Source: Pseudogymnoascus verrucosus (lineage: Eukaryota). Taken from it: a stretch of DNA of 64,000 nucleotides. The stretch lies in the NCBI GenBank assembly GCA_001662655.1, contig KV460245.1. The stretch is one strand, 5' to 3'. Positions 32,008-60,332 of the stretch are shown in pieces (position 1 is the first letter of the stretch; each line of letters opens with the position of its first letter). Made by a program: the position numbers and the translations under genes. The notes below the pieces were generated by a model. It was not told where the DNA came from and ran no database searches. It was given only the letters and a program-made list of their open reading frames with translations.

Positions 32008-32068
32008 ACATACGACCATAGACTCAAGAGAATTGGGCATCCCGTCCGCTCTGCCATACACAGGCTTG
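32008..32068 (+). rRNA. 5' half of an interrupted 5S rRNA gene
   Basis: ACATACGACCATAGACTCAAGAGAATTGGGCATCCCGTCCGCTCTGCCATACACAGGCTTG matches the ascomycete 5S 5' half. A TATA-like TTATATT lies ~28 nt upstream. Similarity breaks after 32068. Confidence 0.9.
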
Positions 32069-32329
32069 TAATTCAGTGGATAGATGCTCTCAATCGTGCC
32101 AATAGGCATAGTGTGGAATCTGAGCCCCTTGCCGCCTTAATGGGTGAAGCGAGGGTGAGGCGACGCACCGTTTTCGTGTCAATGTCGTGTCAGTCTCGCG
32201 TCAATTTCGTAATAGTATGCCTTGCTCTTATTTTCTGTGATCTACCATTTATGAGCCATAAATCTAAGCCACGTAAACTAAGCCCCAAAAAGTGCACATG
32301 CAGAGGTGCAACATTAAGACCACAAGTAG

Positions 32330-33182
32330 CTAAAGCGGGTGAGTCGTGTTCACCAAGCTCTTCGCCAAAGCGTCGCAATCGAGATTCCCAGTCGAGTTAA
32401 CCATAATTGAATGCCCCGTTTTGTTGAGAGCGGGAAAATCAAGACCAGAATGTCAGATTAGTCTTATCCGCTCAAAAGCTAGGTGGGGTGCCGGGGGGGG
32501 ATAAGATAGCACTCACGTATCGATTTCGCCATAAATTTTTATGCTATCAACGTCAGCTAGACTTAGAAAAGTCAGGTTGATGGCTGGCCCTCCCGTAGAG
32601 TTGAGAAGTAGGTCAAGGTTAATGTGTCTAAGCTTTAGCAAATTCAAGCTCGTGATCGAAGCCGCATCATCGATGGCCATGCTAATGGTGATATTAACAA
32701 GGTCGGGTAGATCGTTGATAGTAACATTAGTAGGTAATAGGAGGCTGTTGTCCCAATAGGTTCCACTATAGGTGCCTCTAATCCTAAGACCAGATAGCTT
32801 AGTTAAGCCGGGCACTTCTAGCGGCCCTGCGTAGTTATGAGACGTAATTAGGTGGCTTAAGTGTTTACGACAATCAGCGGGAACGGGCTCATTTGTGCCA
32901 TCAATCATAAACCACCTTACACCGTGAAGCGTAGCATCACATTCGTAGGTAGTTTCTGCGCAGCGGACAAACAAGGCCACATCTTCTGTGACATCAAAGT
33001 AGAACTCCGCATCTGTAGTTTTAGAGATATTTTCCAAAGTAGGACCGACTCCGTATCTGTGTATCCGTAAATTAGTCAGGGAAACATCAAACTAGGGTAA
33101 ACAAGAGGCACGTACTATAGGGAGCAATCGCGGCTGTAAGGCTCACGATAGACACGCCAACAAGATAGCGGCAGCACATCAT
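32330..33182 (-). pseudogene. Degenerate Ecm33/Sps2-like (receptor L-domain) cell-surface protein
   Basis: Signal-like start MMCCRYLVGVSIVSLTAAIAP, L-domain-like repeats (DLPDLVNI, SLNLLKLRHI, LTFLSLADV) and STGNLDCDAL. Second intron acceptor reads TGG instead of AG, followed by a frameshift and a premature TAG at 32332-32330. TA-rich. Confidence 0.55.
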
Positions 33183-33824
33183 CTTTCTGAAGCCGTAAGT
33201 CGCTCGCCCTCTAGAGGTGATATATTATTAGCTCACGCATGTTTTTGAGATTTGAACCCTTCTCTAGTTCTCCATAACGACATAACTCTTGCTAACTGCA
33301 CCACGGGAGGCATTGGTAGATAATTTAGCTGCGCAGGTTTTATTGAGGCAATCATTAACAACCTGGCCGACGTCTTTAATTCTCCTGCAGTGGCACATAT
33401 GACGGACGCGCTTACATCAGAAACTGCAGCCGAGCCTCATGACTCAAAGCTCGAAGAAAAGATGAAAGAGGGTTGCAGTGTCTTGTTGCCGCGGCACCTC
33501 GTTAGCAATCCAAAACAAGATTTGGCTAGTAATTAAGGGTAACTAACATCCTTAACGTCTCTTACAGCAAAAATTGAAACTTCGAGTGCGTATTCTATAG
33601 AGTGTTAACTGATGGCGCGTCGTGCAGCTATGGTACAAAACAAATACTGATTCTGGTGACTGTTATGAAGTCTGTCCCAAGATCATTTCATTCTATCTAG
33701 AGCACATATTCATTTTTCAATGTTGATTCATACCAATACCTAATAAAGTAGTTCGAATAAATTGAAACCTATAATCTCCTCGAATTCTCCTTCATTTCCC
33801 GCATTTCGGTTGCTTTGCTCGAGC

Positions 33825-34489
33825 TCATACCCTCGGACATTCAAATCCCCCAAAAATTGTCTCAAAGTCATACTCATTCCATCTAACTACCGGTTTCAGC
33901 CCCGCCCACCTCCACTCCCACCGCCCCTGGTCCCCCTCCACATCCTTAATCCACACCCTCCTGAAGTAAAACTCATTGGTTGCATGGCTATGTCCCCTCT
34001 GCTTCTCCACCTTATGGGTCTCATCTTCAAACCGCAGATGTCCCGCTCTCAACTGTTGTCTCGCAATCACAAAATCGTCATCGACTTTCTCCCACTCACA
34101 CGCACCAAGGAGATGCTGCGTCTTCAGCAATGGATCACCGAGGAAACCCGGAGAGCTCATCATGGCGACGAACGATTCCGCTGCCATGGAGGGATACGAC
34201 TCTCCCGAAACTTGGGTATAGTCGATCAACAAGACTGGCGCGAGGATGCGAGAGAGTCGGGCCCAGTCTTTGCTGTCATAACTGTCCGCCCAGTGGAAGA
34301 GGAGGGAGGAGAGGGCGAGGTGTTCTGTCGGCTTGCGTCAGCGAAAGGACAAATTGTCAAAAGATGGTGAGAGGGGAGGAGTAAATTGGAAAGAAAGGGA
34401 GACGGACCCTCGAAAGTGATCTGTTTCTTTCCTTTCTTGGAATCAATAGGTGAACTTATGGCGGACCCATTTGCAAAATTCAACCCCAT
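33825..34489 (-). CDS. SCD1: Scytalone dehydratase
   Basis: Intron 34407-34325 gives WADSYDSKDWARLSRILAPVLLIDY, followed by FLGDPLLKTQHLLG, GHSHATN and WAGLKPVVRWNEYDF. Start may extend to 34537. Confidence 0.92.
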
Positions 34490-36199
34490 CAAGCCACCAA
34501 GGCTGTTGCGTAAAAGTGATACAATAGTCAGAATCATGGTCTTGTTGTCTTACGGGGGGGTTTTTTTTGTCGTTGAAGATGTCAACTTTCTGGCTCAGGT
34601 TTTGATGTCCAGGGAATATATTTATATCCATCTCTAACCACTCTACCAAGAAAAGTAGAATGTAACGGAGTTCATGGACCGGACCTAGTGGAGAACACAG
34701 CCCCAGCTCCCACATCTCAATCCCAATGCCTAGTTGGCAAGTACCCCGATGCCTAATCCCACTGTGCCCCGAGGACCTTACATGTCGCCATCGGCCCACC
34801 AGTCTCATGTCCGGATCCGGTATAGGTGCATTGATATCAACAACGAAACAGCAGATAAAGTAGCCACCATATCGTATCTCGGATTTTCGTGTAGGCGCCC
34901 CCTGCTTCCTGGCACTTGTTGCTGAACGGGCACTTTCCAAACCAACGTTGTCCCTACGTGTCCCGGGCCATGATACTCATCCTGTTCCCTTGACCTTTTG
35001 TCATAATGATGCTACATCGACATCTCTGGCAGTTGTATCGATTCGGTCAATGAGGACTTGCTGCCTAAAGCGTCAATCCTTCGCTTCCTCACGTCATCTA
35101 ATCCAAATCCTTAGTCACCGAGACATACTCCGTATTCATTCTGAGTCGGAACCTTGCTGGGAAGACGGGAATTTGTAGGATTTCTACGAAGGGATGTTTT
35201 CAATCATGAAGATCGTACATTCCAGATGCGGTCGCGCGGATCCGGCAGTACAAGCTTCAGACTATTGTGATTCTGGCTCGGAACATCAACGGCACTTATG
35301 GAATAATTCGGCTCTAGGATGCATCACGACCCTGAAGGCTCAACCACTCCCAAATGCGAACCTGTGACGTCTATATAGGGATGAGCTGTCAAGCTGTCAT
35401 ATTGCATGGGACGGGATCGTGGGCTAAAAGCGGGTTGTCGCCTAGTGGATTGCTTGAACCCGATTCTACCCCTGCTCACCAACGTTTCTCCGTGGCCCAA
35501 TCACGCGCTTTCCCTGCTTTCTGGGAAAGCGCGTGATTGGGCCATTTGAACCACTTACTCCATAAATGATGGTTAGTTATTCGACGAATGTCAAGAAACA
35601 GCCCATCGGCAATCGATCGATGAAGATCTATAAATGGCTTATTGCTTGCTAAGGTGTGCCCGCTGCAGAGCGAAAGAAGTGACGTCAGGACGGTTCAGCG
35701 ATAATCCTAAGAGTTGCGCGGCTGAGACTGGTGCAACCGACTATTGACGCCTTGGGCCCAACTGTGGATGGCGGCGCCGCGACGCAGCCGTCCACGGTCG
35801 GTTGAAACGGCCCCAGCTTCGGGCCGGGAATAGTCGGCGTGAGTCGGGCCTCGAGGTGTGGGCAGGACGATTGTAGGGGCATTACATGTCCCCTGTGCAG
35901 TTTCGTAGTACTTATATGAGTATACTCGGAGTATGTAGGTACGAGACTACATGGAACTCCTAGGGCTCGAAATACCATTTGCGTCTGCTTTGATTTCCGC
36001 ACTTTCAAACGAATCTTTCAAATGCCGGCTGCTCCTTGTGCAGGTGCATGCTCACCGTGATATTGTAATATTGGCAAATGTCAGGGTGGACATAGTCGAA
36101 ATTGTAACCATCGCTCAAGTTGTCAATTTACTCTATCCTTACGAGCTGCTACCCTCTCCTGTCTTTTTCTTGAATCTCGGAAACCACACCATCCTCAAC

Positions 36200-39157
36200 A
36201 TGATCTTTTGTACCTATTGCGGTAAAAGGTTCACGAGAAAGGAGCATTTGGAAAGGCATATACCAAGTCGTGCGTATCCTCGTTACATCTAGGCTGCTTA
36301 ACATGCTGAGAAGTAGAAGATACAAATGTAAAACCTCACAGATGCAAATCGTGCCAACTTTCGTTCGCGAGAAGGTAAGTTCATATCACATCACTCATGA
36401 ACGAATCGTTTTTGATGATTACGCAGAGATCTTCTGCAGCGCCATTACTCGACATACCATGAAATAGGAGATCCATCTCTCCTACTTCCAGCGTCTATTC
36501 AAACCGTTGCTGGACGAACATCCATCGCTTGCCTCAACTGTGCGAGTGCAAAGACTAGCTGTGACAAGCGTGTACCATGCGCAAGGTGTGCGGATAAATC
36601 GCTGCCATGTGAAGCAAGGTTTACGCGACGACCATCAACTCTGATGGTGAAAGCAATAGCCACGTCTGAAGCCTCCAAACAAGCTCCAGAATCAACGGAA
36701 CCCAAACCACCACAGCATTCCGCTATCTCTACTCCACTAGAAAATAATGATATGGTTATTGACCCTCGTTTACATTCGGCTCCTGCGATGGAAATTGCAT
36801 CACCTACGCCCCAAATATACAGCACTAGTACCTCCGGCGAGCCAGGGTCAACGAGAATTGGTGGCTTCGATGGCTTTGTGCAATACAACGACGGAATTGC
36901 GAGTCCTGTCTTGAATTATCAAGATCCGCTCACATGGGACGATTTATCCATGGATATGAACTTTTATGGTAATCTCACATCTGTGCCACCCGAAAACATG
37001 CATCCGGTGTATTCAGCTCAAGGCGACATCTCGTCGGGTTCTGACATAAGCTCTAGCTCAATACAATATCAACCATCGATATCACATACAAGCAGCTGCA
37101 GTATAAGTTCAGTTGGCGATGTCGACATGGGAAATGTGCCACCATCCAAGCGGGCCAAGCTGTCTCATCGTGCTGTTGCACCTGGAGTTCAAGAACCCCT
37201 GGCTACAGAGCAAGCTTGGCCATTAGCACGGTGTAATCCGCCCACATTCTCGGACTCCTGCTCACGTACGACTATTGTTCATCTTGAGAGACTGGGACAA
37301 ATCTCTAAACATGAACGTGCTTGGGATTCCCTAGACTTGGAGCCTGACCTAGCTATGTCTGCATCAGATTTCATTAATGTCGAGCCTATTAACTCCGGCA
37401 CCCGCGATACTCTTAATGCCAATACGCTAGGTTTTCTGTATCGCGCCTTGAAAACACGTCAGGGTGGTTTCACGAACAAATGCCAGAATGACCACTATCT
37501 CAGTCCAGCAAATTTCAGCTCTCGTCTTCTCCCACCAACGAATATGTTGGAGTATTTTCTCCTGAAATATACTCTTAATTTATCGAAATATTATTCGCTC
37601 GATGCTAGGGGAAGAATCGACCCTAACGAGCTCATCCACGGTAACCATACTTCTACTCTCCTCATCCTCCTCATGATCGGCCAAGGCGCTTCGATGTCAA
37701 GGTCAACAGAAGCTCGCTGTCTGTCAGCTGCTTTGACAGAAATCTGTAGGATATTGCTCTTTGATATCATTGAACAAGATATCGAGCTCAGCGCTGACCT
37801 GACTGTTCTGCGATGTGCGCTATTATTTACGATGCTCGGTTCGTGGAGTGGGGATAAATGGCATATGGATATTGCGATGGGACAGCGCGGAATGTATCTC
37901 ACTATGCTGAAACGCGCTGGGATGTTGGATCCGCCAGATATTTCGGTGCCGAGGTTAGGTGGGAGTTCAAACGTGGATGCACAATGGCGCGCTTGGGTAG
38001 AGGCCGAAACTCGGAGTCGGTGAGGATCCTGCCTAGATCTCCTATCTACTTTCGGTGACTGACTGATACTTGACAGACTAGTATACGACTGGGTCCTGCT
38101 CGATCAAGAAATATCGCTTTTCCACGACATGTCAACCATCCTCTCCATCTCCGAGCTGCACGCACTCCTCCCTCACCCCAGCCCCTATTTATTCTCCGCT
38201 TCCTCCGTCCATGCCTGGTCGACGCTCCTCTCCTCATCCTCAACATCACATATCCGGACGTCCCTCCATGAACTCTTCCAAGACTTCCTCCACGACCATC
38301 TCCAGTATTCCGCGTCCCTTACGCCACTAACACTACGCCTCCTCCTCCACCCAATCCAAAGCCTTCTCTATGAAGTCCGGCAACTTCTAACTTGCTTCTC
38401 AGAGGTCCTCTCCACGCGGCGCTCCTCAACACGGACCCCCACCAAAGCTTCAACCCTCATACGTCTCGAAGAAGTCCAATCCCTACTGCAAAAATGGTAC
38501 AACCTGCACCTTTCCCTTCCCCCCTCCGTTTCTGGGTCGGCCCACGACTCGACCAAAACTACAAATCTGATCCTATATCACCTGATCAGCCTTAACGCAC
38601 ACACCTCCTTCACATCCCTGGAGCGCCTTGCGCGCCGTGCTCCCGCCACGCTTGCCACAGCGAACCCACACTGGGATCTCAGCCTGGAGCACAAAAAGTG
38701 CATCTTTGACAGCTTCTCCGCGCTTTTCCATGCAGGGCAGATTCTGCGCCTGGTGACCCTCTTCGACTCCCTAGATCGCACGCCGCCGTGGGCCTCCCTC
38801 GCCGTCTACCGCGCCAGCCTGATCCTCTGGTTTGACGTCCTCGCTACGTCTGATCCGAGCTTCCAGCTGCGGACTGCGGAGGGTCCAATTGTGGTGATTA
38901 ATGAGAGCATGGCCGATGATGCGGCGTTAATGTGCTGGCTATTGAAGAGGGAGGGGTTGCCGGTGCTAAGGGGCCGAGATGGCAGCATGTGCAAGTTGCA
39001 AAATCCAGAGGTGGTTTTGGAGGCTTGCATTAGGTTTGTGGGTGGGATGGATGAGGGAGGGAATCAGAGGGGAGGAAGGCTCGCAGATGGGATTGTGAGG
39101 AAATTACAGACGTTAAAGGGGAATTGGCATGGTGCTGGAGGCCTGCATGGCCCATAA
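36200..39157 (+). CDS. CMR1: Cmr1/Pig1/Amr1-family transcription factor (2x C2H2 plus Zn2Cys6)
   Basis: Spliced N-terminus MIFCTYCGKRFTRKEHLERHIPSHTNVKPHRCKSCQLSFARRDLLQRH and Zn cluster CLNCASAKTSCDKRVPCARCADKSLPC. Introns 36270-36319, 36375-36426 and 38020-38076. Confidence 0.9.
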
Positions 39158-40309: not shown

Positions 40310-40716
40310 TCTGCCTTCGGACAGCGGCTCTGCTGCACAACCTCCATCGTTAGCCCTCTCTGCTCCCAAAGAAGGACTGCGCGCAGCTCTATGGACTCCG
40401 GGAAAAGGGAACCGGACGAGTCAGTTTGGGGAAAGGGGAAGGCAAATGCTGTCATTAACGGATAAGGGAAGAGAGACTGTGCGGACTTCAAATGCGACGC
40501 ACGAGACGGACGGAATAGGACGTTTTCGAAGCCGATGACATAAACACATCTGCTCAAGATGGTGATATATACCTCGACACTAGAAGATTACGCCTTCAAA
40601 CCGAGTGACGAGTAATTCGAGACTTAAAGAGCTACTTTTCGCATATCATCCTTCCCCATTTATGCAACTTTAGGCCTCAACAGCGACATCTACAATACAT
40701 CAAAACTTTCAAAATC

Positions 40717-41656
40717 ATGGCCCCACCAGCAGCAGTTGACGAGATCGCCTCTAGCCTCGCTATGGGCGGTGATGTTGATCCCCAAGGTGCCACTACATTT
40801 TTTACCTCCCTTCCATTTGCTGGAAAAGTCGCCCTCATAACCGGTGCATCCCGTGGAATCGGCCGTGGCATGGCTCTCGAGCTCGCCCAGCGCGGCTGCT
40901 CCATTATCGCGAACTATGCGTCGTCCGCGACAGAAGCCAAGTCGCTCGTTAGTGAGATCCACAAGCTCGGAACTGGCGCCAAGGCCATTGCTCTGCGTGC
41001 CGATGTCTCTAAGCCTGATGAGATCTTCCAGCTCTTCGAGGACGGCATCGCCCACTTTGGCCACCTGGACTTCGTCATTTCAAACTCCGGCACTGAGGTT
41101 TGGAAAGATGAGCTCAAGGTCACCGAGCAGGACTTCGATCGAATTTTCGACCTGAACTGCCGTGGTCAGTTCTTCGTCGCCCAGCAAGGCATGAAGTATC
41201 TCCCACGCGGCGGCCGCATCATCCTCATGTCCTCGATTGCTGCCTCCATCTCGCATGTGCCTAACCACGCCTTATACGCAGGCTCAAAGGCAGCCGTGGA
41301 GGGGTTCACAAGGTGCTTCAGCATTGATTGCGGCCCGAAGGGTATAACCTGCAACGCGATTGCTCCGGGAGGCGTCAAGACCGACATGTTTCAGGGTAAT
41401 GCATGGCATTATACACCTGGCGGAACACCGGATACGCCAATGAGCGAAATCGATGCGGGTATTGCAAAGAGCTCCCCATTGAATCGCGTTGGGTATCCAG
41501 CTGATATTGGCCGTGCCGTATCACTACTTGTGAGCCCAGAAAGCGAGTGGATTAATGGTAAGGGACCGCATTTTCACCCTTGTCGGTGATAATTTGTAGA
41601 CGCATGCTAATCTTATCTCAGGCCAGGTCATCAGGCTGAGTGGAGGAGCCATTTAA
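40717..41656 (+). CDS. Hydroxynaphthalene reductase SDR (1,3,6,8-THN reductase, Brn2/Arp2/4HNR type)
   Basis: TGASRGIG, NSG, NHALYAGSKAAVEGFTR and IAPGGVKTDMF..NAWHY. Intron 41558-41621; ends GQVIRLSGGAI*. Confidence 0.88.
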
Positions 41657-42367: not shown

Positions 42368-43618
42368 TTAACATCCTTCCGTCGGCCAGAATATTGAATC
42401 GGCTATTCCAGACGTCATACGCTGTTTGCCCATTCTCAGTTCTTCATATGCGATGTTAAGGTTTTTTGATAAGTGACCCAACAAAGTAGAACAAATGCCA
42501 GCATCCCTATCCCTTTCATTGCGTCCGCAAACTTCGCGGAAACGCCCAAAGAGTTCTTCCAGTTTCCGGAGTTCGCGCCATAAAATTTCATTACTGAGCC
42601 AACGACCATCTTCGTTAGCAACGCGATAACTGCCGATAGGCATTTGTGAGTCTGCTCCAGTCGTACCACCGAACCCACCCTGCAACGCTACCTGGTAAAA
42701 TGACAAGATTTTCTCCATTATGGTGGCAAGGAGCATGGTAGTGGTATTGGATCCCGATTTGGAAACACATTCTCTGCAAGCCAACATACTGGCACATCCT
42801 TCTACAGCTTTTCGATTGATGGTCAAGGCCATGTCAAACGCTGACGCTAATCGAGTGGTGCTGGAGTGATTGTGAAGAGCTTGAAGAGATTGAAGGCAGG
42901 TCGTAAAGCAGTTGCAGGATGGCGAGGATATCTTAGCATTGGTTCGGCAATCAGGTGGAGAGTTGGCATCGAGCGATGAATTTGGCGATGGAAGTTCTGC
43001 ATTCGTGCGGGGATGGAATGGTAAATTTGACGACTGACTATCGGACCATGGCGAGATTAAATTCAGCTGTGGTACAGCACCTAAATATTTCGGGCAAGAC
43101 ATCATTGTCCCTTGATCGTTTTGGACGACCGGATTGTCAAACTCGATCTGCGATATTGGCGTCCAAGGGAGCGAGGGGTCAAACAACTCGGTAGTGCTAG
43201 GAGGCAGTCCCAAATCGTAAGCATCAAACAAAGCGTCGTTGCGATGGGATGCAGTTGTGTTTGCCGAAGATAATTGCTTTCTATTTCCATTCGCTGACCC
43301 TAATGAAATATTCTTTTTATCGGTAGCTATGGGCATAGCTTGAGAGTCAAACGCAAAGCGGGAATGCGCGGCCTCGTCGACGTTCGTATTTCGGTCGGCA
43401 ACAGCACTGGTATTGATGTTGGAGTTGCTGATTCTCCTATCTGTACTTGGTTTGCCGGTCCTCAACGATGGACTGTATTTACAATCTGTTCCGCACGTGA
43501 GGCAGCGAGAACATATCGGCCTAGTTTTACTGCATTTAACCTTTGCGAAGAAGCATCCATCACAAGAAGCTCTGAACCTCTGAAGACGGGTCTTATTTGA
43601 AACTTTACTTGGTGACAT
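42368..43618 (-). CDS. Zn2Cys6 pathway-specific transcription factor, AflR-like
   Basis: [31 protein letters not shown] cluster and an AflR-like C-terminal block ([11 protein letters not shown]...[21 protein letters not shown]). Confidence 0.85.
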
Positions 43619-44628
43619 CGTAGCTGGTATTCGTTTGAGAGTTATTGAAATGGAGATATAAAATATGGCACCCTATGGATGGCACGGTCGACGTTGGCTG
43701 GAGCTCCACTGATGAAAATGTTGTGTTAATTCGATGCCATTTAAGTCGAGTGAAGGTAAAGTGAAGGTAAAATGCTTCTGCAGCAACATATATCATTTCA
43801 GACAAGTTAGATGGCCATATGATAAACCTGTGATCTAGGAACAGTTATTTATATGACGTAAGTAGTGAACCGGCCAAAGAAGCGGAAGCGTCAAAATGAC
43901 GCGTTAGTAGTTGCTGTCAACTAGTACCACATTCTTAAGGTTCTGTTCCAGTGCGCCGACCAATTGCACTGTCGCTCAGTGCAGCTACATCCTCTACATG
44001 AAGCTGCGCTGAGGCAGCTTCTATTTACGGTCGTCAGTATCAGCGAACAGATTGGATAAAACCTTCTCACGGTTCAAGAACAAAGTGATGGCCTACAACC
44101 CCCTCATGTTTCTCACATACGCGATAGTCCAGAGCGACCTAGCCCGGTTACGTCATTAGATACTTTCACCACGACCTCTTAAGCCACAACCTACCATAAC
44201 TCTTCTTAGTGTTGAGGTCATTGATAATATCGCTTAGAGCCCTCTTTTGTCCATGGGTCTCTGTCGCCTTCCGAGCATACCTCGATATTCTCTATGTAAA
44301 ATCCCGATCTAGAGCGTCTATTTCGTCGCTTTTAGCAATTTGTACGCATTCTGTGTTACTATTTTACGCTAGTATTAGCACGTACACCTACCTAGAACTG
44401 GTAGTGCATCTCTCGCCAGTATCGTAACAGAGGGATGCGATAGCTCTAAGCTCTCAGCACCAAAAATCATATGTTTCCTCACTTACTAACGGTCCTCTCA
44501 AGTACTGCTCTGTGTCACGTAGTCGAAGCGTGAGTCTAAATAGTGATCGTACATTGTAATTAATAAGACTTTAGATGCTCTCTTAAGGAGGGCATCCTTC
44601 ATAGCTATATATCAGTGGAGCATTATAT

Positions 44629-47600: not shown

Positions 47601-50600
47601 GCCTATGCAAACCGGATGAGGGCCAACTTCCAAAAATAGGGTCTTCTCATTGATCAGCCCAGCTGACCGAATTGAGTTTATACCGTCCAAAAAGTTTACT
47701 GGCTCACGAGCATGTCGTCGCAGATAGGACGCATTCACAGTTTCTCCTTCTCTAAGTTGCCTTCCAAGTAGCGTTGAGACGATCGGAGCTGTTGGAGCGT
47801 GAAACTGAACTGAAGCCGCCAACTTCTCAAACTTGTCGAGGATTGGATCAACCTGGGCAGAGTGGAAGGCGAAAGGTACTTTGAGCTGCATGCATTTAAA
47901 ACCAGCTGCAGTAAGGCGTTCCGAGATGACATAAATCAGTGCTGTATCTCCACTGAGTACTGTCTCTTCTGGCCCATTGATGCATGCAATATTAATGCTT
48001 GCCTCGTCCACAGATTCTCTGATCGACAAGACTGAAGCCTTGACAGCAAGCAAGCCATGACTGCTAACTGTGCACTTCTCCATGAGAAGCTGTGCCCTCT
48101 TACCGATAAGGTAGATTGCATCACTGGCTGAGATAATGCCAGCTACATTGAGAGCTGCGTATTCGCCAAGACTGTGTCCGATGACAACGCTTGGATTGAT
48201 ACCCCAAGAAGCCCACAATCGGGCCATTGCCATCTCGAAGCACAACAAACCAAGCTGTACAACAACTGGTGATAAATCTTCCACGGCAGCAGCAGAACCA
48301 TCTATAAGTGGTAAAAACGAGGGTAAGCAATACATGGCGGCAATGTTGTTGAACTCGAGCATGGTCTCCTTGAACAACGATGAACTCTCAAAGAGCTCCT
48401 TGCCAAGAGCAGCATAGTGCGACCCTTGTCCAGTAAACACAAAGACAATCTCTTGGGTGGTCAGAGGAATTGGCGTAATGTCTTCAGTCAACTTGTGCTT
48501 GATGAATTCTCTGACCTGAGTAATATTGAATCCTGTGACTGATATCCGCCAGTTGTGTTGAATTCGACGGGCAGTAGTCGTATACGAGATATCCGCGAGC
48601 GATGCCTCCGGGTGTTGTTCGATGTAATACATCAAGCGCTCAGCGTTCTTTATCACGGCAGATTTTGATTTCGCAGTTATCGATACCATATGCGCTGATC
48701 GGTTATCTGTCAAAAGCGTCTTCGTAGCAGGACCGTCCTCGAGCAACAGCCCAGAGTTTCCACCAGCAGCACTGAAGTTGTTGACAAAAACACGTCGTGG
48801 TTGGCCAGCTTTCTTAAGTAGAGGAGTGGAATGATAAGCAATATGTACATTCCTCTCTGCCAAATCTTTTGGGAACGTTCTATTGATCGTCTTCTTGATG
48901 CCAACGTGTGGAGGCACGGTATTCTTCTGCAGCATCATGAGAACTTTGATAAGTGCTGTAACTCCAGATGCCGCTTCTCCATGGCCCACATTTGCCTTGA
49001 CTGAACCGAGATATAGCGATTGCTCTGCGCTTCTCTTCTGGTCTGCAGGAGCGAAGACATTTGTGACTGACTTCATCTCAGTGGCATCGCCGGCTTGAGT
49101 GCCAGTGCCATGCATTTCCACATAGTCTACATCCAATGGATCAACACCAGCCATATTTAGGATATTGCGATATAGAATCTCTTGAGTTCCGGCATGGGGA
49201 TGAGTGATTGACACTGCATCTGCCGAATGATTCGTGGCCGTGCCAAGAATGACACCGAGAACATTGTCCTTATCTGCAATAGCATCCTCGAGTCTCTTGA
49301 CGATGACAGTAGCACAAGCATCGGCGCGACAATATCCGTCGGCGTCGTTATCGAAGGTGGCACATGGCCCATTCTTTGACAAGAACTGTCCTCTGCTGAG
49401 GCCGGCGAAAATGTCAGAGTTGGTCATACAACTCAGGCCTCCAACAACAGCAGTATCGCAGTCCTTGGCCCACAGCGACGTACAAGCGAGTTGCATAGCC
49501 GCCATACTGGAAGAGCAGGCGGTGTCGATACTGAAACTTGGCCCACTAAAGCCGAAATGATAGTTGATACGTCCAGGTCCAAATGCGCGGACGCCACCTG
49601 TAATGAAGTATGTGTCAACCTCCTGCGCTGCATTGATTTCACGCCAATCATCACTGGTCTGTCCATAAAATGTACCAACTCTGTCGAGCTTTGTGGAGCG
49701 AGTTCTGTTTGGCACATAGCCAGACATTTCCAAGGCCTCATAAGCGGTAGTAATAGCCATGCGTTGCATCGGATCTGTTTGATGCGCTTCTCTTGGCGAC
49801 ATATTGAAGAAGCGAGGATCAAATAGACCTGGATTCTCAATCCAGGCTCCATAAGACGTATGACTCGTGTTCATAACCTTTCCAGAAGGGTCACAGTGAG
49901 TCTTCATATCAAATCGATCTGCCGGTACCTCTCTGTGTAAAGCGAGTCCCTTTTCGAGCAGTTCCCATAGCTTCTCATGCGTTGCAGCATCGGGGAAACG
50001 GCCTGCCATACCGACAATAGCAAGTTTACACCGCTTTGACGAACCATGGTCTCCTGTGTGAGGTGCCATACGATCCTTTTTTGAATGCGGTGCGCGGCGC
50101 AGATGAACCTCAAGACCTGTTTCATTCTTGAGTTGTTGTACTAGGCTACTAGCAGCTTGCGTTGGACCGAACGGTATAACGAGACACGATGAGCTTCTAT
50201 AATTATTTGCTTGCGTCACACAGCTTGCTAAGACCCGCTGAAAATTTAGTGGCTCCAGAAGAATGTCTCGAATAACTGCTGTGATAAGCTTTTTAGGATC
50301 TTTTTCCGCAAGCCACTGCCCTGTTGAGCATGAAATGACAGGGAATCGTCGAGATGCATTTTTGAGAACTTCGCTTAGGTTAGAATCGTTAAGTCGCAAA
50401 ACTGCCTCAATTTCAGCGGCGGAATAGAGATGTGATGCGTGGTACGGCCCATAGATAGGCAGTGGTAGTGGCCCATCTTTGAACTCATGCTCATCGACAA
50501 GCGCCTTCAACGTGGGTGGTGGACCGCTAAAAGCTATGCTCGTTGAAGTGATGGCGCTGATATATGCTTGACTGGTCGTTGTGTAGCCCTGGCAAAGTTA

Positions 50601-51272
50601 AGTCTCCAATTTTTGTTTGTGTGTAGTGATAACTCACCTTCGACTCGTTAAAATCAGCAAGTAGGGACCTTCCAGCTGGTTCATTAAGTCCCGGAACAAC
50701 ATAAGTCCAGCTCTTGGCCGCATCGCCAGATTCATGTATGTGCTCTGCAAGAGCAGAAACATGTCGTCCTGTTCGGAAGGCCAAAAGTACAAATTCGGCG
50801 CCAATGTTTACAAGAGCCGAGAGAGATGGTGCAATGGAAACCGCAACGGCGGCAATAAGCCCGGTGCAGAGGCCAACTGTCCATGTTTCCTGTGGTCTTG
50901 TAGCATCTTCCGGAACCTTTTCTGCTCGACTAAAGTATTATAAGCATCAGATAAGAGCAAGATCGTAGTGAGCACGTACTCGATATAGTGAGCGAGTTGT
51001 GTAGTAACAAGAAGAGCACTGTCTATTGCAGGATGTGTAACATCCCTGGTATGATATCTCTGACTAAGTTCTTGGATTGTAGTGAAAGATGGTATGTGTC
51101 GACGTTCTAGAGATGGGAGACGTTCGATCTCATTTTGAAGAGTAGAAGCAACGCGATTGAGGAAAGCATGTGAAAGAATACTTGGATTTCCATTACGGCA
51201 AAAGTCTGCAAGAAACCCCTGTGTGTCCAGAGACTGTTCTCCAAAGAGAAGAAATGATATTTTCTCGGCCAT
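44629..51272 (-). CDS. Non-reducing iterative type I PKS, SAT-KS-AT-PT-ACP-ACP-TE (~2160 aa), DHN/naphthalene type
   Basis: SAT GLCTG; KS DTACSSS, HGTGT and GHGEAASG; AT GHSLGE; PT GHLVNG; ACPs GVDSLMSL and GVDSLMAL; TE GWSAGG...GNHFSMM. Introns 50979-50930, 50637-50589 and 44729-44677. Confidence 0.95.
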
Positions 51273-52734
51273 TTTGAGCACCAGTTGGACATCAGTAAGA
51301 ATAATGGGACGCAGGGTTTGGAGGTGCTTTTAGGCTTATAAAGAGTAGAGAAAGTGCTTTACCCGACATGGCAATACTTCCATTATACTTTTAGTCACAT
51401 TTAGCGCATCAACTCTATCGGTCGCCGAGCGCTGATTCAGGTCTATATCGTCATATACGTGGTACATTAGATCCAAAATTGCCTTGCGAGGCTTTGGTAG
51501 TTTCGTTATTTCCATCTATTACTATGGAAAGCCACAATGCTGGTAAAAGAAGCCCTCAAGCTCAATCGAGACATAATTGAAATCAATCCACACTTTAAAA
51601 AGAGACATCGTCCACCCCATTAGGGAAGCTTTTTACATGTCAAGACACAGCATGAAGATCCAATACCAAATGGAAATTAGGAAGCGCATGGACGCCGACC
51701 GAAGACCGAAGCTATAGCTACGAATTGAGCAGTACCACAGCCATCATCTCGAGCTTAAAGAGAGAAGACATCAGTCCTTTGATTTGCATTACAGGAACCC
51801 AAAAAATTTTCCTGTTGATGATTCAAAAAGGCTTAGAGTTTCCGGCGGACTTCGTGGACATCCCCATGGAGGTCCGAAAGAACACGGAGAGCCACAAATG
51901 AGCTAACGTCAGTGTTCAAGCCATGTGTGCGAGGTCGCAATGTCAATTGAAATATTAAAGAACTTCTTTAAATATTCTATACCAGATAATCCCCGTTGCC
52001 AATGAAGAGGTAAAGTAAGCACCTTTTTATAATAATTTGTATAGAGGGCAAGCTAAAATAAGGTTCTCACTTCGTCGCCCTACCCAATTCCTCGGTCACC
52101 TTCGCGCCCATTCTCGCTACCTCTCTCATCGGCTTTTGAGTCAGGAAACTGGTTCTGTTCTTCTAAAAAATCGGGCAGCTGGCTTTTTGAAGAGCTGCTA
52201 CACTCTTTTCCAGAGGGCCTCCTACTTTCGAGCCTAAAATGCAGCCCTGGAAGCTGCTTGTGGACCTGGTTAGCTGCATTGCGGGGTATTAGTTTACATA
52301 CTAATAAATGCAAGATCGGGAGTCGTACCAAAGTTCGAAGCGCAAGGCCTGGGCCGGCACGCTTACGAACTGGCTCGGTTCACGGTTGGGCCGGAACATA
52401 CACGAAGTGATAAAAGGGATGAGATCATCCGTAGCAATCCCTACTCCCAGCGGGTTTCCGAGGATTTTCCCCACCGGACTTCCGTCGGGGATAGTGAAAA
52501 TTTTGATATCATATAGACCGCCCAAAAAAACCTTCACTAGTCCTGTGTCATATTTTGTCGGGGCTGTTTAAGAACACGTCATTTTGGCCTAATCCTAGCA
52601 TTCAGGCCGACCAGCAGCTGTTAAACTTCAATTCACCTCGGTCGTATAGGCTCACGTTGAGTTTCTGTAGTCGCGAAGCCTTTACTGCAGCGCCTAAATT
52701 CTACAGTTGATTTCCCCACTTACTGAAAGCTACT

Positions 52735-54543
52735 ATGGGTTTATTTCTAATCGTACTGTTGGTTGTGATACTTCCATGCGCCGTAGCAGCTCATAGATGG
52801 TGGCATGATCCTTATCGTCGTATGCCAGCGGGAGCTCGAAAACTTCCAGGACCATGGAGTACGCATCATTTCTCTGCAGTAATCAACGATAATATATGTA
52901 CTTACTGGATCCGCAGGCATGTGGTTTATTGGCCGTATTCACGATATCCCAAAAGAAAGAACGTGGCTTGGGTTCTACAAATGGGCGAAAGAATCAGGCC
53001 CCATCTACAAGCACGAACTCTTTGGCTCGACCCATGTCTGGATTTCCTCAGAGCAAATCGCGAAGGACTTGCTTTCGAAACAAGGGTCCATATTTTCCGA
53101 CCGGCCACTGATAGATAATCTTCCTATCAACAAGACGGGCGGAGAGTACCTCCCTCTCTTGGGGGAAAATGGTATGCTAGACAGTTCCGTCTTTGTCAGG
53201 TACTGGATAAAATGGTAACTTGTTCTAATCTAGAGATCTGGAAGCACCAGCGGAAGTTTGGACATCTTCTCATGACAACAAGCTCAAAGAATGCTCAATA
53301 CCACTATCCGGTCATTGAGACTAAGCGCCTCTTGTACAAGCTTCTCCTCGCGCCAGAGTCCTACAGAAGCCTCCTCGAGGACCACACCAGTCGGAATATC
53401 TCCCGTTTAGCGTGGGGCTCGCCAGATTGTTATCTGACTCTGCAACAAGTGACTATGGCTCTGTTGAGTGTGATTTCGCCAGCAGGCGCTCTCCCTAATG
53501 TAATCTCACCTCTCGCTGCACTCCCAGAATGCCTATCACCATGGAAGAGGTACGAAAAGCAGCGATATGCCTTCGAGCGGGAGTTCTTCCTCAACCAGAT
53601 GTCGAAGGTCCGCAAAGAATGGCTTGCAGGTACAGCCAAGCCATCTTACATGCGCCTGTTCCTTGAGTCGCAAGAGAAGTTTCAAACTAGCTACGTTGAA
53701 GGTGCTTACCAAGTCGGCATGATGGCTATTGCTGGAGCCTTGACCATAGCTAGTCCGATGATGAGTTTTGTTCTCGCGATGGTTCAATCACCTGAATGGC
53801 TTGCGAAGACGCAGGAAGAACTCGATCGGGTATGTGGCGACAGATTGCCTGCAATGGCTGACATGGAGAATCTGCCCGTTTTGCGAGCCGTCGTGAAAGA
53901 GGTGCTGAGGTGGAGACCACCAGTTCCTACTGGTTTGTCGCAATATCCTACAATGTCTGACCGTTACTTGACTAACCATTTTGCAGGAATCCCACATGCT
54001 TCGACTAAGGACTATGTGTACCAAGGCTACTTCATCCCCGCTGGCTCTACTATCCACGCATTTGAATGGTAGGAATACGTGCAAGTTTAAACTTGGTGAA
54101 GATGGTCATGCTAACTTGAATCTAGGGGCCTCACCCGGGAACCAAGTATTTACCCAATGGCAAACACCTTCCTTCCTGACCGATGGCTAAATCCCTCTTA
54201 CCCTACATACCGCGAGCCTCTCACCATCCACCCAAAACTCGAAGGGCACTCACAATTTGGGTATGGCCGCCGGACCTGTATGGGAGTCGACATCGTCAAC
54301 CACGAGCTATTTCTTGTTTGCGGTGCCATCGCCTGGGCATTCAACCTAAGGAAGAAAATAGATGAGAACGGACAGGAGATCCCTCTCAATGATATGGAAT
54401 ACTCCAATCTGCTGATTTCCAAGCCAGCAAAATTTTCGTTCGACTTGACCTTGAGGGACGCGATGAAGGGAGAAAGCATTGTCGCGATGTGGGAAGCGGC
54501 CGAGAAGGAGGATGGAATTCAAAATGAACCGATTAATGTATAG
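52735..54543 (+). CDS. Cytochrome P450 monooxygenase
   Basis: N-terminal TM anchor plus LPGP, EVLR (ExxR), PDRW (PERF-like) and heme motif FGYGRRTCMG. Four introns at about 52859-52916, 53172-53234, 53933-53986 and 54069-54125. Confidence 0.92.
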
Positions 54544-54695
54544 TTCCTTTATGTTCTCTTATGTGGGTTGCCTGGTCCTATATGATGGTTTATTCGGGTT
54601 TGGGAGGAGTTACGGGCATATATCAGAGGTCTTGTTCTATAACCGTGCTTCGGAACATGTAGGGTGATAACTCTTTCTTCCACGGAGATCGTATA

Positions 54696-57097
54696 TGTTC
54701 CGGCCCAACCGTAAGATCGGCCAGCTCGCGAGCTGGCCGGCCCATTCGCGAGCTGGCCGGCCCAACCGCGAAGTGGCGGTGTAGAATAGTATCGTAGAAA
54801 TTGAAATCCTACCTCCTACCTCCTACAACTATAGTATAGTATAGTAATTATGGCTACTATTACTTCAATTACTCCATTTCCATTTGACGTACGCACTGCT
54901 TTTGAGGCCTATATAAGCAGCCCTACTTACTACAATCGAGAGCAATTCTCACACGAAAAATGGGGCCAAATACACACTATACTCGAGGATCCAGCTGCTT
55001 TTATTCTGCATAATAAAGAGAGTACAAACCTAAAGCACCATACACTCTCTAGCTTTAAGCTTGTTAATAATAAGCTATATAAGCAGAGTGATAGGCGGAG
55101 TGATAAGCAGCACCTACGAGCTGTAGTTCAAAAGGCTGAGGTGTTTGACGTTATTGCACAAGAGCACCTTAAGCTTCTACACGCAGGTCGGAATAAGGTA
55201 TGGCCTACTATCAAGCAAAAATACTATGGAATAAAGCGAGAGGATGTAGAGTTTATACTTAAACGGTGTAAGAATTGCACTTTGAATAGGCCGAACACTA
55301 CAAAAGCTCCCTTAGTTCCTATTATAAGTGGACGGGCGTGGGAGAGGGTTCAAATCGACTTAATTGATATGCGCCACGAGCCTTTAGGGCAGTATAAGTG
55401 GATTCTTCATATAAAGGATCACTTCTCAAAGTATACACAGCTATACCCATTGAAAAGCAAGCACGCAGAGCCTATTGCAGAGTGCTTTGCTCAATTTATT
55501 ACAGCTTTCCTACCTCCGAAGATTATGCAGGCTGATAATGGGAAGGAATTTAAGGGGGCTCTCTTACTCCTACTACGGAAGTATGGAATACAGGTGATAA
55601 ATGGAGCACCACGGTCGCTACAAACTCAGGGCCTAGTCGAGCAGGCTAATGGGGTTGTTGAGAATAAGCTCCGGGCATGGAAAATGGATCATAGGTCTAC
55701 AGAATGGAAGGATGGGCTATTAGAGGTTACACTTGCTATGAACACCCAAATCTACTCTACAATTGGGTGTGCACCAGCTGAGCTTCTATTCCGGGAACGG
55801 AGCTCATATATCAATTGGCTCGATAGCTAGGCCCGGAAGGATCTAACAATCGGAATTGAGCAGGAGGACCCAGCTATGGGCCCTATTTTCGAGAGCGACC
55901 TCCAGTCTGAGCTTGAGTCCGAGACAGAAGCTCTAATCGACCTACAGCTCTAGCGAGTCCCTGAGCCTAGCTCTAGCTCTGAGCCTGAGCTAGAGCCTAA
56001 GCGAGAGCTCGATTCTAGGCTTCGAGCCCAGCCTAGAAACCGAGCTAGAGCCAGAGCCCAGCACCAGCAAGCCCCTAAGCCCAGAATCGAGCACTCTAGC
56101 TCAGAGCTCAATTCCGAGCCCAGCTCTAGCTCTGAGCTCGAGCTAGAGCGAGAGCTCAATTCCGAGCTCTGTCGTCTAGTTCCTACTCGAGCTCAGGCTC
56201 GAGTACTGGCTCAAATCCAGGCTGAGCCAGAGTTCTGTCTTGAGCTCGAGAACTCTAGAGCCCAGCGAGCCCCTGAGCCCAGAATCGAGCTCTCTGGCTT
56301 AGGGCTCAGAACTCGAACCAGAGCTGGCGCTAGAGCCCTGATCCAGCTTGGACCAGAGCTCGGAATTGAGCTCTCTAGCTCTAGGCCTAATTCCGAGCCC
56401 AGCTCTGGCTCAGAGCTTGAGCCAGAGCCAGAGCGAGAGCTCAATTCCGAGCCCCGGCGTGGGACCTGGGCCAGAGTTCCAGCTCAGCCTAGAACTGAGC
56501 TTCGGGCTACACCTAATCCTATAATTGAGAGAGCTATAGCAGCCACTCAACGAGCTAGGATTTCTATGGTGCGGAAGTATATAAAGAAGCATGATATTTA
56601 GCACTTTGATATAGGAGCAATAGTCTCTATAAAGGTTCCTCGAGAGGATAGAACCTCAACTGATAATAAGAGGCTATTTGCACGGATTCTAGAAGAGCCT
56701 TACCCTCATAGGTATCGGATTCTTACAGCTTCTGGTATTATACAACGCCTTATTCCTACAAAATCACTTAGAGTTGTAGAGCAAGCTCTATGGGCTGATA
56801 TTATAATTCCTACTTCTACAAAGCAGATATCATTAGGGCTTGCAGCTAGANNNNNNNNNNNNNNNNNNNNNNNNNNNNNNNNNNNNNNNNNNNNNNNNNN
56901 NNNNNNNNNNNNNNNNNNNNNNNNNNNNNNNNNNNNNNNNNNNNNNNNNNNNNNNNNNNNNNNNNNNNNNNNNNNNNNNNNNNNNNNNNNNNNNNNNNNN
57001 NNNNNNNNNNNNNNNNNNNNNNNNNNNNNNNNNNNNNNNNNNNNNNNNNNNNNNNNCCAGCTCGCGAGCTGGCCGATCTTACGGTTGGGCCGGAACA
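54696..57097 (+). mobile_element. Ginger/TDD-like DNA transposon with retroviral-type integrase, inactivated
   Basis: TIRs of at least 41 bp (TGTTCCGGCCCAACCG... at 54696-54736 and 57057-57097), TATA 4-bp target duplication on both sides, and an assembly gap at 56851-57056. Confidence 0.85.
54850..56850 (+). pseudogene. DDE integrase/transposase (H2C2 plus rve core) with in-frame stops
   Basis: H..H...CKNC zinc motif and catalytic QIDLID, QADNGKEF and GLVEQAN. In-frame TAGs at 55828 and 55951, then an E/P/S/L-rich repeat tract and a C-terminal VSIKVPREDR block. Confidence 0.82.
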
Positions 57098-57352
57098 TAT
57101 ATAATTTGACGACAAAGACGAGGTATCGTGCTTTGAAAACCTATCGCGGTGTTACCTTGTTAGTTTGTTCACATTAACAGCCCGGTGGCTTAGAACCCGT
57201 AATAAACAATGGCGACATTTGGACTTCATGCTATGCATATTAATGAGGATTCAATTTTAATCTGCAAAGTGCGCATTTGACGTTTAGAAAATTAGGCCTC
57301 GGCTATAACGAGGACTCCGGTCCATTGGTAGCCAATATGAGTTAAACCGTAT

Positions 57353-59556
57353 TTATAACCCGGAATCTATCTGATCAACGACGTTATGCCCACTATATTG
57401 CCACCAGTCTCGACAGGTCTGCGCCATGATCGACGGGATTTGGCACTCGGTGATCAAATCAGGGCGTTCCTAGGTTCTCTTTATCAGCCAAGTTCGCGCC
57501 ATCCATTAGTACAAAGCGACAAAATAAAGAGTTGTTTAGCAAGGAATAGTGGTTATAACTCACCATAACGTTCATAGACAGCCCATCACTAATATGCCAA
57601 GCGACATGACAATGGAACGGCCACACCCCAGGATTATCGGCCAAGAAATCAATCACCACATAACTCGGTTTGCCCGGACTGGGATACCCCCAATCGATGA
57701 TGTGTGTGTCCCTTCGCTGCGGGTTCTCGGGCCGCGTGATGACTCCGTCCCATTCCCCCACCCCCTCAGCGATGACCCAGAAGCTATGGCCGTGGAGGTG
57801 CATGGGATGCATAATGGGGATTCGGCTGCGCACGATGAGGCGGATCGAGGTGCTATTACCAAAGTTGTAGACGTTCCATTGCGGGTCGTCGGGGTAGGAG
57901 GTGTTGCCTAGCTTTGCGAGGAGAAGTATTGGGTGGCTGAGATTTTGTGTTAGGAGTTGTGAGGAGTGAGTGAGTAGGTGGACTATAGGGTGTGGAATAG
58001 GGAGTATTTAACTCACTCAAAGTTAGCTCGGAAAGACTGGTTGTTTATGGTCCACAATTCACTGCCTGTGGCATTAGTTTGGAAGTCAATGTCGACTATC
58101 TGCGTAAAGTCAGGCTCAGGAGGAGGCGCCATAACAAAAACAGGCTTCGTCATATTAAGAGGGTCGTTTGAGCAACTCGTCTCATTGTAAACTGTAGCTT
58201 TGGATGTTGGCGTAGTGGAATTGTCAGATTCCTCATAGTGGATTATAGCGAGAGCATGAGGCTGGTTGGTATTGCTACATCTCTTGCTAATGTCGCTTCT
58301 CATCCAGAATGATTCTGTAGGGCGGCCCGTTCCTCTAACGAGAACGTCACTACGCTGCCCAACTCCAAGCGTGATAACATCTGTTTCATAAGGTTTAATA
58401 GGCACGTAGTCGTTAGCAATTACTGTCATGGTGTGGCCATCGATAGTAAATCTCTGGGTCCCCTCTGATCCAGAGTTAATAAGACGTAGTCGGTGTACCT
58501 TTCCAGACACCAATTTGAACCTTGATAAGCTAGCATTAGGCGTGCAATTTGTTTTCGTGAGAGAGCAGTCATAATCCATCTTGCCATTAATGAGATTGTT
58601 GTCTGAATTTGGAACAGCTCTGGTTCCTATGTAGCGCTTAACAAGCTCGAAATAACCCGTGTGGTAATGGTCAGACTAGCTAAGTAAGCCACTTGTTTCT
58701 GAACAAGAATTCGATCACGTACCAGAAGTATAGGTCCAAGGTCATAATCATAATGTGTATGAGCAGGTCCGTGGATTATCATAGCCCCAAAAATCCCGTC
58801 TGCGTACTGAGCGCTGTAGTGAGAGTGATACCAGCTTGTGCCATAAAGGCCCGCTTGAAACGTATACGTGAACGAGCTCCCTGGTGCAATAGGGCATTGA
58901 GAAACTATTAGTTACGTTAATATAATGCGATTTACATCAAAAACTAGCAATATTACCTGATGGTATACCATCAAACCAAGGTGTCTGATCTTGATGCAGA
59001 CCATGCCAATGGAGACTGGTTCCTTCTTCAGGACCTGTGATATTATTTGTCACTGTTATCTGTCCAATTTAGTGAGTTTGATGCTGCAACTAAACTCAGT
59101 GATCTCACCTGAAATGTATCTCCCCAGTTCGCTTCAATAGTCGGACCAGGAAATTGTCCGTTGATTAGTATACCATTTTTTTGGACGCCATCTGGTGCTA
59201 GGGTGCCGCGCTCAATGACAAAATTATATGGGCGGATTTTTCCAGTATACGGAGCATGGCGGGGATCTGTGAGATTCGTTGTCGCCAGTCCCCATGGAAG
59301 TCCATAAGGTAAGGGCTTCTAACCATTAGAAAGTGCCGAAAGCACGAGAGGGAGACTTACGCCGTCCGTTAGAAATTTGGGCATGTAAGGAGCAGACAGC
59401 GTGCCTAATAGAGAGTGTCCTAGAAAACAATGTATAATCAGTTTCCATTATCTTAGTTGTAGAAGTCTAAACGCCATTAATACCATTTGTAGCGACTTGC
59501 GGCAGAGAAGCTATTAAATTTGCCGAGTCGAAGATGGACCGGAAGGAGAACTTCAT
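57353..59556 (-). CDS. Laccase / multicopper oxidase
   Basis: Copper motifs [17 protein letters not shown] and HCHVAWH, plus [15 protein letters not shown] and the ascomycete laccase C-terminus DSGL*. Multi-exon; start codon uncertain. Confidence 0.92.
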
Positions 59557-59935
59557 ATCGACGTATTACTCTGGGAAGAGCGAAAATAATCCACAACAAC
59601 AGAGATCTGAAAAAAATAAGATTCCCAGGTGATGCCATTGATTAAAAATATACATAGTCGTGAGCAGTCCTTATAGCTACACCTGTAGAAGAAAATGGGT
59701 TAAGACAATCTAGGATCGGCTATGGCTCCGTCGTAACAAATAAACGTTGCCAAGAGACACAGTAGAGAGTCGGGCCAATAAACACCTATGATAATGTAGG
59801 ATGGCTATGAAACTGTCTCAATAACCGCTGAACACGGAGAGACAGGAGTTAAGACAATAAACACCTGCAACACCTGTCTCCAGTTGCGCTACACAGCCCA
59901 ACATGAAACAAAAAATATGTGCGAATTCCGCATCC

Positions 59936-59976
59936 AGTACTCATATCACTCCGCAGTGCGGAGTGATATGAGTACT
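59936..59976. repeat. Perfect palindrome, 20-bp arms, 1-nt spacer
   Basis: AGTACTCATATCACTCCGCA-G-TGCGGAGTGATATGAGTACT. Confidence 0.9.
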
Positions 59977-60075
59977 AGATCCGGAGCCACCGCAGTTACA
60001 CTTCATGGCTTGTCCGCTCACTCAACTCACCTGTAGGCATCCAATATCGCTGTGCAATGCGTCGTAGTCGAGGTC

Positions 60076-60169
60076 AGATGGGTGAGGGAAGGTGAGACAT
60101 CCAGTAAATGTCATTTGATGGATATATCAAATGGCATTTACTGGATGTCTCACCTTCCCTCACCCATCT
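60076..60169. repeat. Inverted repeat, 44-bp arms (one T/G mismatch), 6-nt loop
   Basis: AGATGGGTGAGGGAAGGTGAGACATCCAGTAAATGTCATTTGAT-GGATAT-ATCAAATGGCATTTACTGGATGTCTCACCTTCCCTCACCCATCT. Confidence 0.92.
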
Positions 60170-60266
60170 AGGGGGATAACCGGATTGTCATGAGGCATCA
60201 AAAACATAAGGGTGGCGACGCTCACCCAGTAGTCTAAATGGCACCGTCCTAAGTATTAATCCACTT

Positions 60267-60332
60267 CAAGCTTGAGATCGGTGGATTAGTAGTTGGGTGG
60301 GTGACCACCAGCGAATACCCTCTGTTGTATGT
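60267..60332 (+). rRNA. 3' half of the interrupted 5S rRNA gene
   Basis: CAAGCTTGAGATCGGTGGATTAGTAGTTGGGTGGGTGACCACCAGCGAATACCCTCTGTTGTATGT matches the fungal 5S 3' half. Its end GTTGTATGT pairs with ACATACGAC at 32008. Confidence 0.92.

Follow-up and report, generated by a model that had tools for sequence, protein, structure and literature searches.

How does a 5S rRNA gene come to lie in two pieces with a whole gene cluster between them? The question is raised by a 64,000-nt stretch of contig KV460245.1 of Pseudogymnoascus verrucosus (hereafter the window; G000:C40:186001-250000 in our numbering of this 30-Mb fungal genome), in which 28,201 bases separate the halves of such a gene. Its protein relatives likewise point to Pseudogymnoascus. 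The insert probably derives from a Starship lineage of the Enterprise family and is non-autonomous through loss of its captain; the lineage is one that integrates site-specifically into dispersed 5S genes through an att-like mechanism. An original prediction, made from the letters of the window, had read the junctions as tyrosine-recombinase attachment sites in which an 8-bp direct repeat is accompanied by a 5S-like arm, GTGGAT, that would explain targeting.

The split 5S gene shares its breakpoint with dozens of others

Nucleotides 1-61 of the 5S gene lie to the left of the insert and nucleotides 57-119 to the right (Table 1); an Rfam scan over the whole window missed the interrupted gene. 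The pentamer GCTTG (5S nt 57-61) occurs once in intact 5S and is present at both insert junctions, making a short direct repeat (DR) that matches the target.

In pattern searches of the genome the 5S 5' half was matched 108 times and the 3' half 80 times. Among the matches listed, which are all except 8, 43 were intact 5S genes; the orphans were 57 copies of the 5' half and 37 of the 3' half. With further loci added, the set for scoring came to 68 orphan 5' and 39 orphan 3' halves. 5S identity stops at nt 61 in 53/68 orphan 5' halves and starts at nt 54-58 in 34/39 orphan 3' halves, most commonly at nt 57. Truncated 5S copies therefore do share a breakpoint, as had been predicted, and because the junction feature recurs at dozens of split 5S genes it is not due to chance.

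Beyond the breakpoint, 53/68 orphan 5' halves are followed at a distance of some 20 nt by the same conserved motif, which is in exact register in 46. This left subterminal motif, CTCAATCGTGCCAATAGGCATAG, has 68 genome matches at ≤3 mismatches and 0 in a reversed control, and was found at 23 metagenome loci. It is a far better search motif for the family than GTGGAT. More than 50 ends are present in this single genome, and most paired units are 3-14 kb.

Sister ends carry paired 17-bp arms around a 5-bp core

Left ends read GCTTG, 3 nt and a 17-nt arm, and right ends read arm, 1 nt and GCTTG, so that the end structure derived from the sister ends is arm(17)-N-GCTTG-NNN-arm(17). These are asymmetric terminal inverted repeats (TIRs). 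In a register scan the best left-right arm match was always found where the left spacer equals the right spacer plus 2, which makes the joined ends symmetric about a 9-nt spacer.

Arms were typed in the 46/68 left halves that are in register and in 35/39 right halves, the dropped ones being 3 non-element junctions and 1 worn core. Left arms fall into types B (15), A (12), C (10) and D (8) with 1 unassigned; right arms into A (12), B (7), D (7) and C (4) with 5 unassigned. In the 12 nearest left-right pairs the mean arm match is 13.3/17, compared with 9.9 when permuted (p=1.5e-4), and 9/12 pairs have the same arm type (p=3.5e-4). Arm type also follows the lineage of the captain-side flank, with 10 changes on a weakly supported tree versus 19.6 when shuffled.

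The window copy has type A arms at both ends in the correct orientation, and only one left and one right end motif lie within the window. It is a worn copy, with 12/17 positions complementary between its two arms. The letters and coordinates from which the original prediction was built are all right: CAGGCTTG at 32061-32068, AGTGGAT at 32075-32081, ATCCACT at 60259-60265, CAAGCTTG at 60267-60274 and GTGGAT at 60281-60286. The 8-bp direct repeat is present in the window with 7/8 identity (G at 32063 versus A in the 5S consensus), but the core that the ends share is only the 5-bp GCTTG; in the orphan 3' halves it is preceded by CAA in 9/39 and by T in 21. Similarly, the 7-bp inverted arms are real letters, but they are pieces of the 17-bp arms, which stand 3 and 1 nt from the core. 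The predicted asymmetry of 6 versus 1 nt arose because the worn 7-bp piece and the 8-bp repeat were counted. The 8-bp repeat, like the asymmetry of 6 and 1 nt, belongs to a single subtype. The palindrome CAAGCTTG exists in the window but is kept neither by type B, C or D right ends nor by relatives with a GCTCC core. Finally, AGTGGAT/ATCCACT has 13 copies in the window, making the 7-mer weak evidence by itself.

Type C right ends hold the usual left interior, with the swap point at the subterminal word TGAGC. Type C ends with swapped interiors were seen at G000:C2:379.1-388.5 kb (L032), C6:534752, C27:137007 and C33:316190, and in L032 a captain remnant lies at the left end. These swapped interiors suggest inversion between the subterminal TGAGC repeats.

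GTGGAT is confined to one arm type

The narrowest model, in which GTGGAT is the recombinase-binding word of both arms and of the target and works with an 8-bp direct repeat, holds for type A arms (8/12 left, 10/12 right) and for the 5S of this genome. The word is absent from types B-D (0/33 left, 0/18 right), so the expectation that truncated 5S copies share GTGGAT/ATCCAC arms is limited to type A ends. A scan of metagenome contigs gave 23 loci representing 18 distinct junctions, and GTGGAT is present in 2/18 of these. The metagenome relatives occupy the same 5S position in a variant with a GCTCC core and GGCAGATTAG downstream; the core follows this variant in 10/18 distinct junctions, which are in register. 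The targeted variant reads GGCAGAT and lacks GTGGAT. Since a 5S without the word is hit at the same site, GTGGAT is not the recognition word of the family. As a family-wide rule the GTGGAT model is refuted, also by the small share of cores that CAA precedes, and we give it little credence in any form.

The closest 5S match to the arms lies 3' of the core

The broader idea of likeness between arm and target fared better than the hexamer. For all 81 arms, 5S nt 64-80, directly 3' of the core, is the best of 208 17-nt 5S windows, with a mean fit of 8.98 compared with 7.2 for the next window and a median of 4.0. The bases held in common with 5S are the outer ones, G71, T74, T77, A78 and T80, which agree in 77-96% of arms. 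The type A arm matches 5S at 13/17 positions (p=1e-4). GTGGAT itself stands 7 nt after the core in the left end of the element and 6 nt after it in 5S.

Captains adjoin sister right ends

No DUF3435 or captain match was found in the window insert by Pfam or by tblastn over the window. Homology to sister right ends breaks off at 60170, beside two hairpins. In contrast to the window copy, three sister right ends (on C25, C52 and C27) are adjoined by inward-facing DUF3435 genes that start about 370 nt inside, and captain remnants were found at further right ends and in one metagenome locus. C52:107.5-120.5 kb is a complete type A unit with a captain. Clearly, the sister elements have a fixed breakpoint, paired 17-bp arms and an inward captain inside the 3'-half end. 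Because the captain end is the right end, the window element reads on the minus strand.

Two type A captains are 57-66% identical to KFY93904, which is assigned to fam06, the family of the Enterprise captain (PMC11162782 Table S4). Judged by this identity, the sister type A captains are in the Enterprise family. A search of PDB sequences found no match to a captain homologue. The fixed breakpoint and the sister DUF3435 captains uphold the prediction of tyrosine-recombinase-type ends from a 5S-targeting Starship family. Elements of this kind are already known, and the window copy is a captain-less one; the captain was found in sister copies and not in the window.

Further DUF3435 loci without these ends (G000:C44:135.9-137.2 kb, C26:47.2-48.5 kb, C20:428-429 kb, and on C61, C46, C18, C24 and C15) probably belong to other Starship lineages.

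Fused junctions and a proposed mechanism

Right and left ends are fused to each other at some chromosomal loci, and 8/9 fused junctions examined are in register (7 in G000, 1 in L177). They lie at G000:C2:296693, C3:131575, C33:136573, C39:230536, C64:2788, C71:1801 and C5:415227, and in L177. The fused junctions show the geometry predicted for a circle joint, in same-type form and, in several cases, in mixed-type form, and are best read as tandem integration into the end of a resident element. A special fold was not found at the fused junction (z=+1.05). In one case, L181, a GCTTG type A joint sits on a 5S half of CTGGAG type. This case suggests that the last two bases of the core, TG, travel with the element, which would leave GCT as the needed homology.

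These observations can be arranged in an att-like scheme. The element would excise as a circle with the joint arm-N-GCTTG-NNN-arm, as we infer by comparison with Hephaestus. This joint would be an attP-like site, two inverted putative recombinase-binding arms around a 9-nt spacer. The captain would recombine the circle with a 5S gene, with strand exchange within the very short core GCT(TG). The target would be chosen by the core and 5S nt 64-80, through the outer bases G71, T74, T77, A78 and T80 rather than through GTGGAT. Lineages A-D differ in the inner bases of their arms, and within each lineage these bases stay matched left to right. The window copy would have brought or captured a dihydroxynaphthalene (DHN)-melanin-type cluster and then lost its captain; by now it may be a long-standing resident that only a captain supplied in trans could move.

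Inverted arms that flank a short spacer are familiar from the att sites of bacterial prophages and integrative and conjugative elements (ICEs), from Cre/loxP and from Tn916-type integrases, where a partly unmatched overlap is tolerated. The elements described here differ in having a eukaryotic DUF3435 enzyme and arm-like sequence on only one side of the target.

Did the insert move as a unit, and does the arm choose the target?

In 4 named Pseudogymnoascus genomes the carrier gene of the left flank and the cargo regulator are on separate large contigs, a count that leaves out one record and the genomes with short contigs. A search for flank synteny through the MFS gene retrieved no Pseudogymnoascus record. 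The window insert is likely to have moved as a unit.

Several observations weigh against site-specific integration of the whole insert by the scheme above. Unpaired ends are numerous (68 left, 39 right), and for this reason some left-right pairs may stem from later rearrangement; 3/12 nearest pairs were not called the same type. Cargo coverage was examined in 4 of 23 listed related datasets and is at single-copy depth in 4/4, with no contig bridging the left junction and contigs ending at the 5S repeat. Neither an empty site nor a circle was seen for the window copy in assembled contigs. In VKM F-4519 the tags of the carrier gene and the cargo regulator are adjacent. The three end-linked captains are decayed, all carrying stops and being TpA-enriched. 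As for the arms, likeness to 5S is significant for types A and B only (C p=0.10, D p=0.09), the arm-like stretch of 5S is one base nearer the core than the left arm of the element, and 5S upstream of the core is unlike any arm (≤6/17).

The unpaired ends and the missing captain would also fit an accident of the chromosome, in which the ends of two dead elements were joined by ectopic recombination or deletion around a pigment cluster that is native DNA and never moved as a unit. That the cluster holds the only scytalone dehydratase of the genome, that its regulator occurs across the genus at 72-98% identity and that the cargo is found in 4/4 relatives favor such an origin. On the other hand, both ends are type A and correctly oriented, the 5S halves complement each other exactly, no other end lies between them, and in the 4 named genomes the left flank gene and the cluster are not linked. 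We consider a native cluster distinctly unlikely.

The three points concerning the arms bear on a different alternative, that the arms are historical relics once copied from 5S and that targeting now depends on the short core together with, for example, Pol III factors or chromatin. The left end at C53:121656 (L056) agrees with this, as its arm is pure 5S sequence (nt 62-80) continuing into the subterminal motif of the element. So does the fact that types C and D, with their weak likeness, hit the same site as every other type. However, the bases kept by all arm types are largely those common with 5S nt 64-80 and unchanged in the 5S variant, and, as the fused junctions demonstrate, the arm of an element can stand in for one side of the target. 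The relic explanation is a serious but rather unlikely one, and integration guided by arm and core is preferred.

A possible target-restoring subfamily

Four related left ends come immediately behind an entire 5S 3' half with its terminator, and have in common an arm ending in GATAGC or AATAGC (Table 1). The C17 locus is a whole unit, consisting of intact 5S, left end, 5.1 kb, right end and 5S 3' half. Among 30 intact 5S genes examined, 3 have an element left end within 60 nt. A left end after a complete 5S 3' half and terminator is also seen in L090 and L003. From this layout, it appears that one small subfamily brings the 5S 3' half and terminator with it at its left end and thereby restores its target on insertion. 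It is possible that the layout arose instead by deletion between neighboring loci or by off-target insertion in the terminator.

Certain bacterial attP sites include the 3' end of the RNA gene that they target, and so restore it. We tentatively entertain, at somewhat less than even probability, a joint reading in which 5S nt 64-80 is a recombinase half-site, arm and captain variants co-evolve, one subfamily restores its target as tRNA-targeting ICEs do, and captain-less mini-Starships have split more 5S genes than remain intact and carry the melanin-type cluster of this genome.

Cargo and other features of the window

Host-like cargo tens of kb in size is present, the 28.2-kb insert carrying a polyketide synthase (PKS) cluster (Table 1). 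Its gene set (scytalone dehydratase, reductase, two regulators, non-reducing (NR) PKS, P450 and laccase) is presumably of DHN-melanin type.

Table 1. Coordinates of the split 5S gene, the insert and its genes in the window, and of left ends with the restoring layout elsewhere in the genome
Feature	Position	Strand	Remark
5S rRNA gene 5' half (nt 1-61)	32008-32068	+	Matches the intact 5S genes found here
Left core GCTTG (5S nt 57-61)	32064-32068	+	Breakpoint of 53/68 orphan 5' halves
Captain-less Starship derivative (probable), 28.2 kb	32069-60269	-	One left and one right motif in window
Left terminal arm, type A	32072-32088	+	TAA (3 nt) between core and arm
Conserved left subterminal motif CTCAATCGTGCCAATAGGCATAG	32089-32111	+	Genome and metagenome motif matches
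Second (subterminal) inverted repeat, left copy TGAGC...GCCGCC-TTA	32120-32139	+	
Scytalone dehydratase	33825-34337	-	Only match in genome
Zn2Cys6 transcription factor, homologues also with C2H2	36204-39157	+	Taken to be Cmr1/Pig1-like
Short-chain reductase	40609-41589	+	Trihydroxynaphthalene (THN)-reductase-like, inferred from context
AflR-like Zn2Cys6 regulator	42368-43672	-	
NR-PKS (SAT, KS, AT, PS-DH, two ACP, TE)	44688-51329	-	
Cytochrome P450	52711-54543	+	
Nested transposon, 45-bp perfect TIRs	54692-57101	+	rve integrase open reading frame (ORF) 54835-55830; assembly gap inside
Multicopper oxidase (laccase-like)	57459-59318	-	In the place of the captain in sisters
Two near-perfect hairpins, 59927-59985 and 60076-60169	59927-60169		Sister right-end homology stops at 60170
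Second (subterminal) inverted repeat, right copy GGTGAGCGTCGCCACCCTTA	60207-60226	-	
Right terminal arm, type A	60252-60268	-	1 nt from core
Right core GCTTG (60270-60274) and 5S 3' half (nt 57-119)	60270-60332	+	
Arm-like target stretch, 5S nt 64-80	60277-60293		Within 5S 3' half
Restoring-layout left ends	C17:224830 (L088; 219.7-225.0 kb), C6:549856 (L138), C22:445220 (L139), C6:534665 (L107)		

The nested transposon adjoins the P450 gene and has an rve/H2C2 integrase; a related arm lies at 52350-52405, and relatives occur in L084 and L044. Three near-perfect hairpins are single-copy, those in Table 1 of 59 and 94 nt and one of 52 nt at 35493-35544; the right two stand where the captain was lost. 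Rfam microRNA matches at 60075-60170 scored below the gathering threshold and were rejected as merely hairpin. Window positions 32342-33216 include an ORF at 32513-33091 on the minus strand that has no Pfam family; three related datasets hold a second copy of this stretch, with approximately 87% identity, and L154 has a relative. Outside the insert, a tRNA gene lies at 14385-14456 (Rfam RF00005, 56 bits).

The cargo of the small sisters L035, L094, L088, L061 and L032 comprises NACHT-ankyrin, GH18 with LysM and chitin-binding genes, an AAA/DUF7779 protein, a NucA/B DNase, and AnmK with a sugar transporter. Sister elements' cargo also includes transporters.

Comparison with known elements

Enterprise-family Starships are known to target 5S, and a role for Starship DRs and TIRs is presumed there and not demonstrated (PMC11162782); DRs with asymmetric TIRs have been described as well (PMC12257634). 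In the relevant rows of PMC11162782 Table S7, the captain of Aspergillus fam06 elements runs antisense to a DR of aagccacacg or ggctt. Our sister elements have the AAGC-type DR and 5S target of the Enterprise family. Aspergillus Enterprise/fam06 elements such as Osiris share the captain family, the 5S target and the antisense captain (PMC11162782, PMC12153272), and compared by eye their DR aagcc(acacg) apparently matches in 5S position. GGGTGAGC was found in the starfish-called TIR of one Aspergillus fam06 element, and Osiris h4 likewise carries gene-cluster cargo, an NR-PKS cluster. The elements described here differ in the lost captain of the window copy, a GCTTG/GCTCC core and four arm types, and their abundance and mostly small paired units contrast with the few elements of A. 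fumigatus. No DR of GCTTG or CAAGC was found among the matches for those words in PMC11162782 Table S7.

Voyager of Macrophomina also inserts into dispersed 5S copies with a DR and TIR, but it belongs to another family, its site is 20 bp from the 5' end and its DR is GCCCTGTATTCT; the same paper mentions degraded, captain-less Starships (bioRxiv 10.1101/2021.12.13.472469). Hephaestus resembles the present ends in its short core with required outer bases on one side (TTAC N7 A) and its inward captain (PMC10104507), and its circular intermediate has been shown (bioRxiv 10.64898/2026.09.21.753150), but it has low specificity and a target other than 5S. Within the literature covered, which excludes most subscription journals, no work was found on Pseudogymnoascus Starship ends, on likeness between arm and target or on target-restoring Starships.

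Implications for 5S targeting by Starships

With so many sister ends, it becomes possible to test what 5S targeting by Starships rests on. A single lineage in this genome offers about 80 natural ends with matched variation, and these lead to predictions at the level of single bases, namely a core of GCT, a spacer of 9 and arm positions 8, 11, 14, 15 and 17. Published work expects insertion into 5S to disrupt the gene, a view that the target-restoring subfamily, if real, would qualify. Annotation based on captains would overlook most of this family of ends, and the end motif finds it in other genomes.

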